Assembly (NCBI GenBank): GCA_050949165.1
Contig: JBMNFF010000001.1
Span: 1,059,185-1,123,184, forward strand
Source: Bacillota bacterium
Lineage (GTDB): Bacteria; Bacillota; Proteinivoracia; UBA4975
DNA length: 64,000 nucleotides
Direction of reading: 5' to 3'
In this document: piece after piece, positions 49,678 through 59,258 of the stretch
Numbering within the stretch: the stretch's first letter is position 1
Layout of the letters: each line of letters starts with the position of its first letter
Notes under the pieces: model-generated
What the model was told of the DNA's origin: nothing
The model's input: only the letters and a program-made list of their open reading frames with translations
Databases searched by the model: none
Program-made: the position numbers and the translations under genes

Positions 49678-50364
49678 GTGATTGCCGTGCACAAATGCCC
49701 CTGCAATAACACATGCGCGTCCCGGGTTCCTATCTTCCAGGGGCTCACTCCCCATGAGTTGGGCCGCTTCAACGATATCCTCACCACCAGAGAATATCCC
49801 GATAGCGAGATAATATACACCCAGGACAGTCCAGCCCAGGTTCTCTGTATCGTCAATTCGGGAGCGGTCAAGCTGTTTAAGACCTCTCCCGAAGGCAAGG
49901 AACAGGTCCTGCGCATCCTGAGTCCCGGGGATTTCTTCGGGGAAGCGGTGCTCTTCAGCCAGCAAACCCGGACCAGCTCGGCCCAGGCCCTGGGCCCCAC
50001 CAAGATCTGCCAGTTGGACAAGTCCCAGGCCGAAGAGATCATCCAGCGCCATCCGGAAATCGCCCGCAAGCTCATTGCCGCCCTCAACCTCCGCCTCGCC
50101 CAGGCCGAGGAGCAGATAGAATACCTGGGGACCCGCACCACCCTGCAGCGGGTGGCCCGCCTGGTGGTGGACCTGGCCCGGGAGCAAGGGGACAAAATCG
50201 TCACCCTCCCCCTGAGCCGGGAGGGCCTGGCCAGCCTCACCGGCATGACGGTGGAAAACTTCAGCCGCAAACTCAGCGAGCTCACCGAGCAGGGACTGAT
50301 CACTCCCCAAGGGCGCAGAAAGTTAGTTATAAAGGACTTGGAGAGCTTGGAGAAGCTGACATAA
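49678..50364 (+). CDS. Crp/Fnr-family transcriptional regulator
   Basis: N-terminal Cys cluster (CPCNNTC), cNMP-binding-like fold, C-terminal HTH (REGLASLTGMTVENFSRKL). Confidence 0.8.
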   Translation: MIAVHKCPCNNTCASRVPIFQGLTPHELGRFNDILTTREYPDSEIIYTQDSPAQVLCIVNSGAVKLFKTSPEGKEQVLRILSPGDFFGEAVLFSQQTRTSSAQALGPTKICQLDKSQAEEIIQRHPEIARKLIAALNLRLAQAEEQIEYLGTRTTLQRVARLVVDLAREQGDKIVTLPLSREGLASLTGMTVENFSRKLSELTEQGLITPQGRRKLVIKDLESLEKLT

Positions 50365-50403
50365 AAAAAGAACAGGTCAATCTTCTAAGGATTGGCCTGT
50401 TCT

Positions 50404-51399
50404 TTAATTGCTGAGTTCCGCCCTAAGCTGCAAGACCTCAGATATGGGAAGCTCAGACACTTGCGCCACTTGCTCAGGAGTAAATCCCAGCCGGAGCGCA
50501 TTTCTGGCTGCTAGTCTCTTTGCCTCCAGAATCCCTTCAGCCCTGCCCTCTGCCCTGCCTTCTGCCCTGCCTTCAACCCGGTACTTCTGCCAGGTTTCCT
50601 GCAAGATTCGTTCAAAATTAGTTATCAATGATTTTCCCCCCTTCCTTCTCAAATGGATCAGGACTCGATCACGGTCGTGTTTCTCCATTCCCTTTAAGAG
50701 TACCTTACCTGTCCACCTAGAAAAACGCCGTACATCTTCTTCCGGCATCTGATCCAAGACTGCAGCAAGCTCACCGATTCCAAACAGCACCTCATCCATC
50801 CCTCTGTGTTGCTCCATATAGAAGACACTACCCATCAAATTGCCCAGGGCAAGCAGCTGGCCCTTGCCATATCTATTTACATCAACGAGGATGTATTTAA
50901 AATCTAATGCGTATTTGCTAAAGAACTGAAATCCTGCCTGACATTGGCTAAAGCTTGTCCCCGCCGTCCATTTGCCTTTCCCATTGTATAGCACGCACGG
51001 GACAATAACCGGCAGAGCGAAACTCCCTTTACAGGCAACCTCATTGAACCAATAATTGCGCCAGATTTCCACCATATACATCAATAAACGAAAGGGCATC
51101 ATTTGATCGACGGTAGATTGCAATTCCAGCAAGAGATAGAAGTATACATCTTGCTCGGCCAAACGAAGCCTGTAGATCAGATCGGCCTCTTGGTGCCGAA
51201 AGTCCTGTAGTATAAAGGATTTTGGAATAAGCATTACGTCTTTCGCCTGAATGCCCTTGACCCACTCTGCCTTAACAAAGGTCTGCAAGAATTGCAGAAA
51301 GGTCGACTTATTGGCCAGCAAATACTTGTACCCCGTATCATGCTTATTGCTGGGGACCGCATATTCCTGGTCTGGCTCCCTAACCAAGGCTAAGGACAT
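50404..51399 (-). CDS. Rpn-family (YhgA-like, PD-(D/E)XK) recombination-promoting nuclease / putative transposase
   Basis: N-terminal HDxxYKxL and nuclease core pattern, C-terminal repeat-containing domain (EGRA x3-4 then LGFTPEQVA...LP) as in E. coli Rpn proteins; start moved to MSLALV at 51399. Confidence 0.7.
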   Translation of the reverse strand: MSLALVREPDQEYAVPSNKHDTGYKYLLANKSTFLQFLQTFVKAEWVKGIQAKDVMLIPKSFILQDFRHQEADLIYRLRLAEQDVYFYLLLELQSTVDQMMPFRLLMYMVEIWRNYWFNEVACKGSFALPVIVPCVLYNGKGKWTAGTSFSQCQAGFQFFSKYALDFKYILVDVNRYGKGQLLALGNLMGSVFYMEQHRGMDEVLFGIGELAAVLDQMPEEDVRRFSRWTGKVLLKGMEKHDRDRVLIHLRRKGGKSLITNFERILQETWQKYRVEGRAEGRAEGRAEGILEAKRLAARNALRLGFTPEQVAQVSELPISEVLQLRAELSN

Positions 51400-51524
51400 A
51401 GTAGCCGCCGCCTTAATAATAATGTTAGCACAGTTTCCAATAATATAATATAGGAACACGTGTTCCCTGTCTAGCTTATCTTTTCTCTGATGGTAGCAGA
51501 AATAGAGTCTCCAATTAAGCGGGT

Positions 51525-51773
51525 GGGGCTGTCGCAAAATGAGATATTCGTACATATTCTCCCGAAAATCTCTCCGGGTAGGGGCCGAAAGTATAAAGAA
51601 GGAGCTGTCGCAAAACTAAATCTCCGCGCATATTACCTCAAGAAAATCTCTGTGGGTGGGGGCCAAAAGATCCCCCTATAAAGGTAATCCAATGTAGGGG
51701 CGGGTTTTCCCGCCCGACTCACAAGAATGGCTAATTGGGGAATATGGCGGATTGCCAGTTTTGCGACAGCCCC
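51525..51773. mobile_element. MITE-like element bounded by inverted GGGGCTGTCGCAAAA(T/C) termini, with internal partial duplication
   Basis: left terminus 51525-51541, internal direct copy 51601-51616, inverted right terminus 51758-51773; no ORF. Confidence 0.55.
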
Positions 51774-51779
51774 TTGCTT

Positions 51780-53702
51780 TTACGCCAAGGCCTTTTCTAT
51801 TTCCGCCATGGCCCTTTCCTCCAGGTCGCAGCATTGCCGGACCAAGGCGAGGACCGCCGGAGCCTTGCCAGGGTCAAAGGCCTGGCCCCCGGGCCCGGTA
51901 AAGGGGACCAAGCGGGTTATCTCCTGGTAATTCGCTGCCACCTGGCGGTAGAGGTCAATTGTACCCTCCAGGCCCTTTAGTTCACCGGACCGGGCGGCAA
52001 CATACTCCAGGTATTTGGCGATGCAGGCCTTGGAGTCAGCATAGACGTTGAGATTATAGGCCAGGCCGAAGGGGTCGTAATCTCCCCGTTCCAAAGTGCT
52101 TATGAGATTGGCATAGGCCTTTCTGCCGCAGGCATACCCGGGAGTCGAGTGCTGCTCTTTATTCCACTCCCTCAAGCCGTATTCCAGGGAATCCCGATAG
52201 ATCTTCTCCGGGTCGACCTCCACCCTGCCCTTGAGAATCTGCACAAACAGGTATGGAACCTCGGATATGCCCAGGTTGCCATAGCTCAAGGGATCCGGAT
52301 CTGAGTTGAGGCAATCTTGAACAAACAAAACTTCATCGCCGTCATCATAACCGTCAATCAGGCCAAATTCCAGGAGACCTGTCGGCGCCCAGGTGATCGC
52401 CGGCACCCCCCTGGCTATGGATGCTTTGATCTTTGCCAGGGCATCCTCCTGAATCATATGGAAAGTGTTGAGCCTGGGGTCCCTGAAGACCAGGACTATT
52501 TCGCTGTGCACGCCAATCCTGTCCAGCATGGTGAAATGCTCCATCCCCCAGTCGTACACCGTCACCGAGCTGGGGCAGGCCGTTTCGTGCACGATGAAGT
52601 GAAAGGCCATCCCCGTCATGCCCATGAGTTTATAGATCTCGTCCTGCCACCACTCCACCTTGCGCAAAGCGCCGTCCACGCTGGCGATATATGAGTTCCA
52701 GGTCATTCCCATCTTCGCACCCAGTCGCATTGCCGCATCAGTACCTCCTTTAACAGGTTGTGGCTCCATTATAATCGACGGGGTAGGACATAAAGTGTCG
52801 CACCCCTCAGGCATATTTGCCAAAATCATCTTTTGTAGCCTGGAACAGAAGCGCTGCCGTAACCAGCGGGGTGAAAGAAGGGTAAATTGTTCTACCCCGG
52901 CTATAATTGCCGCCAGAAATTTGCTGGAATTTGTGAATTCCACTCTGTAGACCTGAGGCTCTCCAGAGGGAGATACCCGCAGCCCCGCCTTTCTCAACTG
53001 ATTCTCCCCCTGGGTTTTTACAAGGGCCACATAAGGCCTGCGGTAGTTAAAGTCATCTTTATATTCCTCCGGATCAAACCAGGGAACGATGGTAAACTCC
53101 TCGTCCCGAACCAGGGCGCCTCTTATCCGCTCCAGTTTAAAGATGCGGACCTCCCCGCGGAGTTCACAATACCCGACCACATAATTGCCATCCCCCTGAC
53201 AGAAGAATTTATAGGGGCAGATGATCCTGCGGGATTTTACCCCCGCGGCGCTGACATACTCTATCTCAACTTTATGCCTCGATTGCATGGCTTTGCTGAG
53301 GAGCTTATATGCCCTGACCTCCCGGGGACCGGGATTGATAATTGGTAAATTCCTCTCGCCTTCGCAGTTTCCTTCCCCGCCCAAGCGGGCAAAGAGTTGG
53401 GCCAACTGCCGGGCCTGTCCACCTTCCCTGTTTCGGTAGTGGAAGGCCAGGTAATCCAGGGTGGCCTTTTCTTCTGCCGAAATAAAATTGGCCGGCAGGA
53501 TAAAAGCTCCCCCTCGGTAAAAATACCCGTTGTTCCTGGGACAATATGCAACGGGCGCCCCCAGGGAGTAGCGCAAGTACTCAATATCCCGGGAAGCCTG
53601 GCGGGTAGAAATCTCAAATTCCTCGGCAATAATTCGGCAATTGGGATACCTGCCATGGCGAATCTGCTGGTCAATCCAGAGTATCCTGTGTAAGCTGCTC
53701 AT
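51780..53702 (-). CDS. HTH-WYL domain regulator fused to about 340-aa uncharacterised C-terminal domain
   Basis: N-terminal HTH (NCRIIAEEFEISTRQASRDIEYL), WYL-type beta domain (RRIICPYKFFCQGDGNYVVGYCELRGEVRIFKLERI), continuous 640-aa ORF; ATG with GGGGGTGA RBS. Confidence 0.65.
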   Translation of the reverse strand: MSSLHRILWIDQQIRHGRYPNCRIIAEEFEISTRQASRDIEYLRYSLGAPVAYCPRNNGYFYRGGAFILPANFISAEEKATLDYLAFHYRNREGGQARQLAQLFARLGGEGNCEGERNLPIINPGPREVRAYKLLSKAMQSRHKVEIEYVSAAGVKSRRIICPYKFFCQGDGNYVVGYCELRGEVRIFKLERIRGALVRDEEFTIVPWFDPEEYKDDFNYRRPYVALVKTQGENQLRKAGLRVSPSGEPQVYRVEFTNSSKFLAAIIAGVEQFTLLSPRWLRQRFCSRLQKMILANMPEGCDTLCPTPSIIMEPQPVKGGTDAAMRLGAKMGMTWNSYIASVDGALRKVEWWQDEIYKLMGMTGMAFHFIVHETACPSSVTVYDWGMEHFTMLDRIGVHSEIVLVFRDPRLNTFHMIQEDALAKIKASIARGVPAITWAPTGLLEFGLIDGYDDGDEVLFVQDCLNSDPDPLSYGNLGISEVPYLFVQILKGRVEVDPEKIYRDSLEYGLREWNKEQHSTPGYACGRKAYANLISTLERGDYDPFGLAYNLNVYADSKACIAKYLEYVAARSGELKGLEGTIDLYRQVAANYQEITRLVPFTGPGGQAFDPGKAPAVLALVRQCCDLEERAMAEIEKALA

Positions 53703-58805: not shown

Positions 58806-58875
58806 GTTTTTTCCTCCTTCACGCCAGTTTACAATAGGACGCCGAAGCCGGGCAATTGGTTCATTCATAAAGAAC

Positions 58876-58976
58876 GGGGCTGCCGCAAAATGTCCCCCTG
58901 TCATATTGGAAAGCCCGCCCTGCCGGGAATGTCCCGCAGCGGGCAATATGCAGAGATATCATTTTGCGACAGCCCC
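58876..58976. mobile_element. MITE-like element, second copy (GGGGCTGCCGCAAAATG ... CATTTTGCGACAGCCCC)
   Basis: 17-bp inverted termini at 58876-58892 and 58960-58976; same terminal motif as 51525-51773. Confidence 0.5.
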
Positions 58977-59258
58977 TATATTAACAAGCGCCCTGATGTC
59001 CAGCGATTCGGCAACCTGCCGCGGGTACCGCTATGGCGGCAAGAAATCGCCGAACGGGCGCTTGGTGGCAGGAAATTGTCCTGACTGTTGGGGGAAGGAA
59101 ATAGTGGGGGCAACTCCTGCCTGCTTTATTCTATTACCTGGTTCGCCCCATGGTGCTAGACATTGACCCCAGGCCGCCTGACACCCACGACCCTCCTAAG
59201 GCATAAAAAAACAGAGGTCAGCAACCCGCATCAATTCCGGGCTCCGACCTCCTTGCCT

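Follow-up and report, generated by a model that had tools for sequence, protein, structure and literature searches.

The locus at 50404-51399 of the window (the whole stretch of DNA that was analysed, 64,000 nucleotides long) raises the question of whether a gene for an Rpn-family nuclease also carries, within its own reading frame, the coding sequence of a small protein that would neutralize the nuclease, as in the RpnL/RpnS toxin-antitoxin systems described for E. coli RpnA-E and the plasmid-borne RpnP2 (Zhong et al. 2023, PMC10400941; Kingston et al. 2017, PMC5350276). Family membership, the conservation of an internal translation start, the position and variability of a C-terminal repeat, and the relationship of the C-terminal domain to a known antitoxin make it probable that this is a toxin-antitoxin module of the RpnL/RpnS type, a gene within a gene, belonging to the Rpn family. 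The features discussed below are collected in Table 1.

Table 1. Features of the rpn locus, in coordinates of the window.
Feature	Position	Strand	Details
rpnL, full-length Rpn-family nuclease, 331 aa	50404..51399	-	ORF from ATG 51399 to TAA 50404-50406
PD-(D/E)XK nuclease core and remaining Transposase_31 domain, residues 18-170	50890..51348	-
rpnS, predicted intragenic small protein, 74 aa	50404..50628	-	TTG 50628-50626 (Leu258); frame and stop of RpnL
Internal Shine-Dalgarno (SD) AAGGAAGGGGGG	50636..50647	-	includes G6 tract 50636-50641; 7 nt upstream of TTG
ATG (Met238) of the earlier note	50686..50688	-	judged unlikely as internal start
12-nt x 3.4 tandem repeat, (EGRA)3EG	50533..50574	-	inside the long first helix of RpnS / RpnL C-terminal domain
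rpnL promoter	51445..51473	-	TAGACA 51473-51468, 17-nt spacer, TATTAT 51450-51445; consensus scan 10/12
Palindrome GAACACGTGTTC (GAAC-N4-GTTC)	51454..51465	.	matches Gram-positive LexA (Cheo) box consensus; in promoter spacer
rpnL Shine-Dalgarno AAGGCGG	51408..51414	-	-7.2 kcal/mol; conserved in orthologues
Intrinsic terminator, hairpin and U-run	50360..50405	-	directly past the stop, between rpn and the convergent crp-family gene

Identity of the nuclease gene

The full-length product falls into the family known under the names Rpn and YhgA-like (PF04754, TIGR01784, COG5464). It matches the Pfam model PF04754 (Transposase_31) over residues 18-183 (E 2.5e-30; 106 bits, cut-off 21) and passes the NCBIfam model TIGR01784 ('Rpn family') over residues 19-324 (57.4 bits, cut-off 52.1). 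Homologues of the 331-aa protein numbered 687 at E<=1e-5; the exact protein is absent from a collection of 15 billion proteins, and a phmmer search of the full protein against PDB sequences returned no match. When aligned with E. coli RpnA, the protein shows 28% identity over the N-terminal 124 residues only, and all five of its predicted active-site residues (D21, D73, E92, Q94, and R104) are kept, pairing with RpnA D11, D63, E82, Q84, and R94. The active site is of the D...E-x-Q variant of the PD-(D/E)XK type, with an additional N-terminal HD and an Arg; D73, E92, and Q94 are invariant among 39 homologues, and D21 and R104 are found in at least 90% of them. The profile scores and the retained catalytic residues bear out the earlier note, which had assigned the product to the Rpn-family PD-(D/E)XK nucleases.

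On the minus strand, a second, longer in-frame opening is available at ATG 51555. The start at ATG 51399 is taken as the real one because the orthologues begin with MSLALVREP and because the promoter lies inside the extension that ATG 51555 would add. Measured against three syntenic orthologues, each half of the gene has an omega of 0.05-0.19, with dS saturated; judged from these comparisons of sequence, the 331-aa gene is under purifying selection and functional.

Promoter, LexA-type box, and terminator

The promoter region of rpnL is conserved in the orthologues (L001-L003), as well as in P0004, which has 57% identity and lies in another genomic context, and in P0005 (45% identity). The palindrome in the promoter spacer is the sole perfect match to the GAAC-N4-GTTC consensus (PMC4234289) in the 64-kb window, and is kept in the orthologues as GAACACACGTTC, CGAACAAGCGTTCC, AAACATATGTTC, AAACACTTGTTC, and CGAACGTATGTTTG. 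A perfect box is also present upstream of 7 of 73 distant rpn loci, compared with 0.14 in shuffled sequences and 3 among 409 upstream regions used as controls, and the full architecture (i.e., -35 element, box, and -10 element) was found at 12 of 77 loci, compared with 2 matches in 1.46 Mb of control sequence. A LexA-type operator occurs in the promoter of about 16% of the related Bacillota rpn genes. Conservation in the orthologues, combined with strong enrichment upstream of related Bacillota rpn genes, suggests that the palindrome is a putative LexA operator placing rpnL under SOS control; the 64-kb window offers no SOS gene with the box as a positive control, and the palindrome is assigned to LexA by its motif. 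The palindrome was also considered as an operator of the neighboring Crp-family regulator, a candidate that was rejected since the box recurs at distant rpn genes without that neighbor. The LexA-type box in an rpn promoter is a new observation here, and LexA is not mentioned in the Rpn reports PMC10400941 and PMC5350276.

At the other end of the gene, the RNA fold of the terminator has an energy of -17.9 kcal/mol (z -4.7), with none of 200 shuffles as stable, and an equivalent hairpin is found 3' of the gene in one further locus (L005).

Genomic context and the possible role of the module

The neighbors of rpn encode a Crp-family regulator, a rubrerythrin, an ABC transporter, a Trx-like protein, HMA, a P-type ATPase, and a WYL regulator. 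No defence island is evident around rpn: PADLOC matches only the WYL protein, and none of its models fits the Rpn protein. The WYL regulator upstream was considered as a functional partner of rpn and rejected, as none of 84 family loci has a WYL homologue and the syntenic loci of the orthologues lack the regulator. Synteny of the locus holds across lineages with saturated synonymous sites, which makes it less mobile than defence genes typically are. The GC content of rpn is 11 points under the window average, which suggests a foreign origin, and relatives of rpn adjoin integrases and are carried on thousands of plasmids. A MITE-like inverted-repeat element lies upstream of rpn, and its inverted repeats do not flank the gene.

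This context bears on what the module is for. Instead of acting against phages, the same pair of proteins could constitute a housekeeping nuclease for recombination or DNA processing, induced by the SOS response and buffered by RpnS. The LexA-type operator in the promoter, the stable position beside crp and rubrerythrin across lineages with saturated dS, and the lack of defence neighbors are all as expected for such a role; furthermore, Rpn proteins promote RecA-independent recombination (PMC5350276), and roles of this kind are allowed for by Zhong et al. 2023 (PMC10400941). However, SOS induction fits defence too, the low GC content suggests a foreign origin, relatives adjoin integrases or are carried on plasmids, and the number of C-terminal repeats varies among the orthologues, a type of variation that PMC10400941 reads as the result of diversifying phage pressure. 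A housekeeping role in place of an anti-phage one is considered unlikely.

A probable internal start for a small C-terminal protein

Within the gene, the duplex formed between AAGGAAGGGGGG and the anti-SD (-11.9 kcal/mol) is the strongest among all in-frame start codons, exceeding that of the annotated start given in Table 1. The codon that it serves, TTG 50628, lies in an alignment column that is Met in 100 of 121 homologues, and at the DNA level, over 76 genome loci, the internal-start codon is ATG in 62, TTG in 5, and GTG in 3. When the internal in-frame starts of each family locus are ranked by SD strength, this site comes first in 71 of 72 loci; the mean is -13.5 at the conserved internal start versus -2.6 at other in-frame starts. 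The TTG and its purine- and G-rich SD are kept in all four orthologues despite saturated synonymous sites, and synonymous conservation reaches its maximum within the gene at codons 246-262. Sequence conservation therefore strongly indicates that a small C-terminal protein has its own conserved in-frame start inside the gene, most likely TTG 50628, which would yield the 74-aa RpnS.

Alternatively, the gene could have a single product, with the conserved Met/Leu and the purine-rich stretch serving a structural purpose or acting as a translational pause. The use of TTG, which is a weaker initiator than ATG, is compatible with this explanation, as is the result of the promoter searches: no sigma-70-like site was found by consensus scan on the coding strand inside rpnL (a weak or non-sigma-70 promoter could escape such a scan), and across 73 family loci the 200 nt preceding the internal start show no enrichment of sigma-70-like sites. 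A purely structural requirement, however, does not account for the observation that wherever the residue at the internal-start column is not Met, it is encoded by a start-capable codon (GTG for Val in 3 of 3 cases, TTG for Leu in 5 of 5), nor for the persistence of the internal SD across different encoded amino acids (KGGK here, EEVE in most family members) and its rank at nearly every family locus. In addition, stand-alone ORFs begin exactly at the internal-start codon, and experiments have demonstrated internal initiation in five rpn genes of E. coli and one of C. difficile (PMC10400941). A gene without the small product is thus distinctly improbable.

The position of the start is a separate matter. 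The earlier note had proposed that an intragenic antitoxin of 94 aa begins at ATG 50688 (Met238), while describing its ribosome-binding site as poor. The codon is present and in frame, is a better initiator than TTG, and corresponds to a column that is Met in 25 of 121 homologues. Its poor binding site was confirmed (SD pairing of -4.0 kcal/mol, the background level of the gene, whose mean is -3.5), and Leu predominates in the column (62 of 121), with a mean SD of -1.2 at those family loci that do have Met. Counted from ATG 50688, the repeats would start 38 residues downstream, outside the 8-20 residues reported for all RpnS (PMC10400941), and the stand-alone homologues begin at the position of TTG 50628, not at that of ATG 50688. 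An antitoxin beginning at ATG 50688 is very unlikely. The proposal of an intragenic antitoxin thus gains support from the conserved internal start with its strong SD, and its position moves to TTG 50628, which was probably overlooked because it is not an ATG.

Least credible is a degraded transposase remnant, which the earlier note had named among the outcomes that would refute it, or a pseudogene. The historical annotation 'putative transposase', the low GC content, and the MITE-like element upstream can be cited in favor of this reading, but it is contradicted by the data: the ORF is intact with low omega over both halves, the catalytic residues are invariant, conservation extends to the promoter, SD, and terminator, the gene is not flanked by the inverted repeats, and the Rpn family is not regarded as one of autonomous transposases (PMC10400941).

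The C-terminal repeat and domain

Tandem Repeats Finder reports a period of 12 with 3.4 copies (89% matches, score 68) at 50534-50574. Codons 276-289 (50574-50533) read EGRAEGRAEGRAEG, and the first two 12-nt units are identical (GAAGGCAGGGCA); the 12-bp repeat encoding EGRA units, placed by the earlier note at about 50538-50574, is therefore present at a slightly greater extent (50533-50574). Published RpnS repeats are four residues long, contain one hydrophobic residue along with charged residues or Gly, and lie 8-20 residues after the initiator (PMC10400941), a range that includes the 18 residues separating the TTG initiator from (EGRA)3. Throughout the family, repeats with a four-residue period and Gly at every fourth residue are found at the same alignment position in 2-10 units, and the first period-4 Gly is located 19 residues after the internal start in 62 of 72 loci. 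Since the period recurs at the same alignment position family-wide, the four-residue repeat is more than a product of chance. The four syntenic orthologues (65-73% identity) have either 3 or 4 units, differing by independent 12-nt indels, and the C-terminal repeat can be equated with the hypervariable repeat described for RpnL/RpnS (PMC10400941). Other strains of the source lineage were sought in metagenome contigs with a pattern of the repeat flanks separated by a variable gap, and there were 0 matches.

A profile built from 28 C-terminal domains matches 7TH0_A, the crystal structure of RpnA-S (E 1.4e-4, chain residues 9-45), and the AF2 model of the 74-aa RpnS consists of three helices (residues 4-46, 51-58, and 62-73), of which the first is long. 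The profile match and the three-helix model point to the C-terminal domain of RpnL being an RpnS related to RpnA-S. Foldseek with the RpnS model did not retrieve 7TH0, every match having E>1 and an HTH-type fold. Pfam searches with residues 234-331 or 258-331 gave nothing even at E<=10, including DUF4351 (PF14261), a model that one relative (P0021) does match. The tail here is of the other, HTH-like type (...AxNxLxxGxxxExVxxxTGLS...), and its relatives are weakly similar to resolvase HTH_7.

The C-terminal module also exists as a separate ORF. In a sister lineage, a stand-alone ORF of 78 aa beginning at the internal-start codon was found on 24 contigs, and many stand-alone homologues of 61-98 aa start at profile position 1. 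The G tract in a sister lineage exists in two states: with G7 the gene is fused, and with G8 the nuclease is truncated and RpnS becomes a separate gene. The G-rich internal SD could be a slippage-prone tract by which the toxin is switched on and off; when metagenomes were scanned for variants of the G tract, a single contig, with G7, was recovered.

Proposed mechanism and significance

By analogy with the work on E. coli and C. difficile (Zhong et al. 2023; Kingston et al. 2017), RpnL would be a DNA endonuclease that depends on Mg, has low sequence specificity, and is toxic in its free form, and RpnS would bind and block it through the shared repeat-containing helix, with the number of repeats deciding which RpnS fits which RpnL. 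The same analogy suggests that the RpnL/RpnS pair may serve as an anti-phage defence of the abortive type. RpnS is probably translated from the rpnL mRNA by way of the stronger SD, and not, as happens in E. coli, from a short transcript of its own, because no internal promoter is detectable.

The promoter adds a further, more speculative layer, which is put forward here for the first time. If the palindrome is a LexA operator, the shared rpnL/rpnS mRNA would be repressed in the absence of damage and induced by SOS, and the operator in the promoter spacer would appear to travel with the gene across genomic contexts. Since free RpnL is expected to make DNA breaks that activate RecA, the outcome would be a self-amplifying, damage-triggered switch buffered by RpnS. 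The composite proposal that some Bacillota Rpn modules, including this one, are wired to SOS through a single LexA-controlled mRNA, operate as a self-amplifying switch, and possibly toggle at the G tract is tentative, and is given somewhat less than even chances. Zhong et al. 2023 (PMC10400941) leave open what releases the Rpn toxins, and an SOS switch, if real, could be the missing 'release' signal.

The gene would be a further example of the known RpnL/RpnS gene-within-a-gene toxin-antitoxin kind. It extends the family-wide rule (i.e., a strong internal SD, a start, and four-residue repeats about 19 residues on) to an uncultured Bacillota lineage that uses TTG, and the TTG start shows why scans limited to ATG misplace the antitoxin. 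The more useful by-product of the analysis is the LexA-type operator in rpn promoters, which leads to a testable hypothesis of SOS induction.

Comparison with known systems

The module resembles the E. coli Rpn proteins in its N-terminal PF04754 PD-(D/E)XK domain with the same active-site residues, in the (here predicted) in-frame internal SD and start leading to a small C-terminal protein, in a C-terminal helical domain whose sequence is related to that of RpnA-S (PDB 7TH0), and in a four-residue repeat of variable number in the first helix, at the same distance range from the initiator. It differs in its low identity to RpnA, confined to the N-terminal portion, and is the equivalog of none of the E. 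coli paralogues (42 bits versus a cut-off of 583). The internal start is TTG rather than ATG, and the predicted RpnS is longer than RpnA-S (74 versus 49 aa). No internal promoter was detected by the consensus scan here, whereas an internal promoter gives rise to a short rpnS transcript in all five E. coli genes (Zhong et al. 2023, PMC10400941). E. coli rpnA has no SOS box upstream, in contrast to the Gram-positive LexA-type box in the promoter here. The Rpn system of Clostridioides difficile is alike at the family level, being a Bacillota rpn whose small product needs a predicted internal RBS and start; expression of the C. difficile RpnS was shown in E. coli, and its four-residue repeats vary between strains (Zhong et al. 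2023, PMC10400941).

Stand-alone RpnS-type genes (e.g., E. coli ypaA/rpnE-Ss; DUF4351, PF14261) parallel the relatives in which the C-terminal module is a separate small gene, and differ from the tail described here, which is fused, lacks a DUF4351 match, and is of the HTH-like type. The SOS regulon of E. coli includes LexA-repressed toxin and toxin-antitoxin genes such as tisB, symE, dinQ, and yafNO. These share with rpnL a toxic gene under a LexA operator that overlaps the promoter (putative in the present case), but their toxins are proteins or peptides unrelated to Rpn, countered by RNAs or by antitoxins from separate genes, and the operator here is of the Gram-positive GAAC-N4-GTTC type, with binding of LexA predicted from the motif.

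Family assignment and selective constraint

Residues 18-183 of the rpn product match Pfam PF04754 (Transposase_31; E 2.5e-30), and the whole product scores above the threshold of NCBIfam TIGR01784, titled 'Rpn family recombination-promoting nuclease/putative transposase' (57.4 bits, cut-off 52.1), without reaching the E. coli RpnA equivalog model (42 bits, cut-off 583). In a BLASTP alignment with E. coli K-12 RpnA (query taken from NC_000913; 28% identity over residues 17-140), D21, D73, E92, Q94 and R104 align with RpnA D11, D63, E82, Q84 and R94, whose mutation abolishes or changes activity (PMC5350276). Across 39 aligned homologues, D73, E92 and Q94 are invariant, while D21 and R104 occur in at least 90%. 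The earlier note's assignment to the Rpn-family nucleases is borne out by both models and by the aligned RpnA active-site residues, and the gene is almost certainly an Rpn nuclease.

The open frame (coordinates of this and other features are tabulated below) extends upstream to ATG 51555 on the minus strand; the start was placed at 51399 because the orthologues open with MSLALVREP and a promoter-like site lies inside the extension. Each of three syntenic orthologues (73, 69 and 65% identity) faces the same Crp-family regulator gene in convergent orientation, and in one of them the rubrerythrin and ABC-transporter genes are shared as well. Synonymous sites among them are saturated (pS 0.56-0.83); for the comparisons that allowed an estimate of dS, dN/dS is 0.05-0.14 upstream of the candidate internal start discussed below and 0.12-0.19 downstream of it. 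Such low ratios (0.05-0.19) at saturated synonymous sites therefore rule out a decaying transposase remnant, the alternative that the earlier note had set against its own reading. At 47.9%, the GC content of rpn is below that of the window (59.1%) and of the crp-family gene beside it (60.1%), despite a position kept across lineages with saturated synonymous sites.

Features of the rpn locus in the window
Feature	Position	Strand	Details
rpn ORF	ATG 51399 to TAA 50404-50406	minus	331 aa
Candidate rpnS start	TTG 50628-50626 (Leu258)	minus	7 nt after AAGGAAGGGGGG
Promoter-like site of rpn	51473-51445	minus	TAGACA-17 nt-TATTAT
LexA-type palindrome GAACACGTGTTC	51454-51465		within the 17-nt promoter spacer
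Hairpin and U-run	from the rpn stop codon, between rpn and the convergent crp-family gene		-17.9 kcal/mol, z -4.7
WYL-HTH protein gene	51780-53702	minus	640 aa; PF13280 E 5.8e-16; PADLOC WYL models
MITE- or REP-like element, copy 1	51525-51773		249 bp; between the WYL gene and the rpn promoter
MITE- or REP-like element, copy 2	58873-58978		106 bp

The probable internal start codon

Among all in-frame ATG, GTG and TTG codons of rpn, TTG 50628 has the strongest anti-Shine-Dalgarno (SD) pairing (-11.9 kcal/mol, with -7.2 at the annotated start). Of 121 homologues, 100 have Met in its column, 7 have Val and 5 have Leu, and the corresponding codon of 76 genome loci is ATG in 62, TTG in 5 and GTG in 3; three loci with sense codons (ATA, ATC, GTT) each have an ATG one codon downstream, and the other three comprise a poly-G frameshift (locus L005) and two ORFs that stop before the column (L023 and L070). 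This site carries the strongest SD among internal in-frame starts in 71 of 72 distinct loci (mean -13.5 versus -2.6 kcal/mol at other such starts), and the first Gly of a period-4 run lies 19 residues past it in 62 of the 72. The SD is retained though the residues that it encodes vary (KGGK in the window, EEVE in most relatives); GGGGGG or GGGAGGG precedes the TTG in 4/4 orthologues amid diverged neighbouring synonymous sites, and synonymous conservation in rpn peaks at codons 246-262 (6/10 invariant versus 25% overall). In the predicted 74-aa RpnS, (EGRA)3 would start 18 residues past the initiator, within the published range of 8-20 (PMC10400941). On these sequence comparisons, it is likely that TTG 50628 gives rise to a 74-aa product translated on its own.

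The sequence observations of the earlier note (the ORF, the tandem repeat and the in-frame ATG 50688, which is Met238 and would give a 94-aa product) were all confirmed, and the kind of antitoxin that it proposed appears right; its choice of ATG 50688 as the start does not fit, given poor SD pairing (-4.0 kcal/mol, gene mean -3.5), Met in only 25/121 homologues and repeats beginning 38 residues on.

The C-terminal domain as a separate unit

Proteins that cluster with the closest orthologue at 90% identity include full-length 335-aa forms (on at least 29 contigs), 262-aa truncated nucleases (at least 16 contigs) and a 78-aa protein (24 contigs) that starts exactly at the internal-start codon (MITNFERII...). 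The split is caused by 8 G rather than 7 G in the SD tract (L005 versus loci L001 and L086). The tract is G6 in the window (50636-50641), G7 in intact genes of the sister lineage and G8 in L005 (6759-6766 of JAAYIH010000028.1), where the extra G shifts the frame of the full-length nuclease (RpnL) to the 262-aa form and leaves the 78-aa RpnS ORF separate. The G7 and G8 forms could reflect polymorphism between strains, phase variation or systematic error at homopolymers.

A profile built from 28 C-terminal domains matched 38,146 representatives among 1.84 billion (E<=0.001), and at least 24 of the best 150 matches are stand-alone proteins of 61-98 aa with residue 1 at profile position 1. The profile also matches 7TH0_A (RpnA-S; E 1.4e-4). 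In an AF2 model of the 74-aa protein, the repeats sit in a long helix (4-46), which is followed by two short ones (51-58 and 62-73); a Foldseek search with this model returned only HTH-type matches, none significant. The tail of the rpn product does not match DUF4351 and is of the HTH-like type. Some proteins are made up of 2-7 tandem RpnS-like modules, each a repeat helix with an HTH-like tail (e.g., the profile matches P0146, 141 aa with 2 copies; P0137, 233 aa with 3 copies; and P0136, 579 aa with 7 matched stretches).

Tandem Repeats Finder reports a 12-nt-period repeat at 50534-50574 (3.4 copies, 89% matches); the sequence at rpn codons 276-289 is EGRAEGRAEGRAEG, with no DNA difference between the first two units. 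The window encodes EGRA-EGRA-EGRA, and the orthologues EGLA-EGRA-EGRA, EGRA-KGMA-EGRA-EGRA and EGMA-QGRA-EGLA-LGRE, i.e., the unit number is 3 or 4, and two 12-nt insertions arose independently. Across the family, the period-4 Gly run has 2-10 units, and gaps in the tract are all multiples of four residues.

Promoter and LexA-type box

About 90 nt upstream of the rpn start are kept among the orthologues despite saturated synonymous sites. The palindrome GAACACGTGTTC is the sole GAAC-N4-GTTC in the 64-kb window, a pattern that in B. subtilis and clostridia forms the LexA operator consensus (PMC4234289). The box is present in the orthologues (GAACACACGTTC, CGAACAAGCGTTCC and AAACATATGTTC), in P0004, a 57%-identical homologue with unrelated neighbours (AAACACTTGTTC), and in P0005, a 45%-identical homologue adjoining two integrase genes (CGAACGTATGTTTG), each time between TTGACA-like and TATAAT-like hexamers. 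A perfect box lies within -200 to +20 in 7/73 more distant family loci (dinucleotide shuffles, 0.14, maximum 2; control upstream regions, 3/409), and the full -35/box/-10 architecture was found in 12/77 loci, and 1.46 Mb of control sequence yielded it twice. The neighbouring Crp-family regulator is confined to close orthologues and so does not account for the box. No E. coli-type SOS box was found upstream of E. coli rpnA, neither Rpn paper (PMC10400941, PMC5350276) mentions LexA, and the literature searched held nothing relevant to an Rpn-LexA link. The LexA-type promoter box of rpn is new here; the basis for LexA control consists of the motif, its conservation and its enrichment, which tip the balance slightly towards such control.

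Downstream of the -10, a second conserved block (51420-51434, minus strand) reads AACTGTGATAATATT in the orthologues, a form resembling an extended -10 (TGnGATAAT), and AACTGTGCTAACATT in the window; similar GTGTGATA(A/C)AAT blocks lie downstream of LexA-boxed promoters in distant family members. The block may serve as an additional promoter or an additional operator half-site.

Genomic context

On one side, rpn is flanked by genes for an ABC transporter, rubrerythrin and the Crp-family regulator, and on the other by those for a Trx-like protein, HMA and a P-type ATPase; the locus is no obvious defence island. A stretch of ~2.4 kb located between the Trx-like gene and the rpn promoter is missing from the orthologue loci and contains the WYL-HTH gene and the 249-bp element. 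The WYL-HTH protein has an N-terminal HTH and a WYL domain, with no Pfam match in its C-terminal ~400 aa; since 84 rpn family loci hold no WYL homologue, its adjacency to rpn is incidental. The element ends in a 15-nt inverted repeat, GGGGCTG(T/C)CGCAAAA ... TTTTGCGACAGCCCC, whose 15-mer has 6 matches in the window versus 0.4 expected, and within the 249-bp copy ~76 bp are directly duplicated (51525-51574 and 51601-51650). A 21-bp tandem repeat at 51771-51818 (2.3 copies, 78% matches, consensus CCCTTTCTATTTACGCCAAGG; Tandem Repeats Finder) extends across the 3' end of the WYL gene into the right inverted-repeat arm of the element.

Relatives occur often on plasmids (4,429 records) and seldom in phage records. 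P0005 lies directly upstream of two tandem tyrosine-recombinase (Phage_integrase) genes (locus L089, 2020-3912), which suggests that this copy is carried by a mobile element, with its LexA-boxed promoter retained.

Comparison with the published RpnL/RpnS system

The defining RpnL/RpnS features testable from sequence were found at this locus, with repeat variation judged between orthologues, except an internal promoter and an association with a defence island. An internal promoter is present in 5/5 E. coli rpn genes (PMC10400941); none was detected in this rpn, with no enrichment across the family, and we therefore infer that RpnL and RpnS would come from a single mRNA, probably LexA-repressed. 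A C. difficile rpn gene also yields RpnS, dependent on its RBS and internal start, and a plasmid Rpn protects against T-even phages (PMC10400941). Zhong et al. 2023 (PMC10400941) showed a gene-within-gene arrangement for rpn genes, in which RpnS, the C-terminal domain produced from an internal start, binds and blocks the toxic full-length RpnL (PMC10400941). RpnA-S (PDB 7TH0) is a dimeric three-helix bundle whose long first helix can hold four-residue repeats, the number of which differs among strains and determines RpnL-RpnS specificity (PMC10400941). By homology with this system, the predicted 74-aa product probably acts as an antitoxin, and the rpn locus is a member of the already known RpnL/RpnS family.
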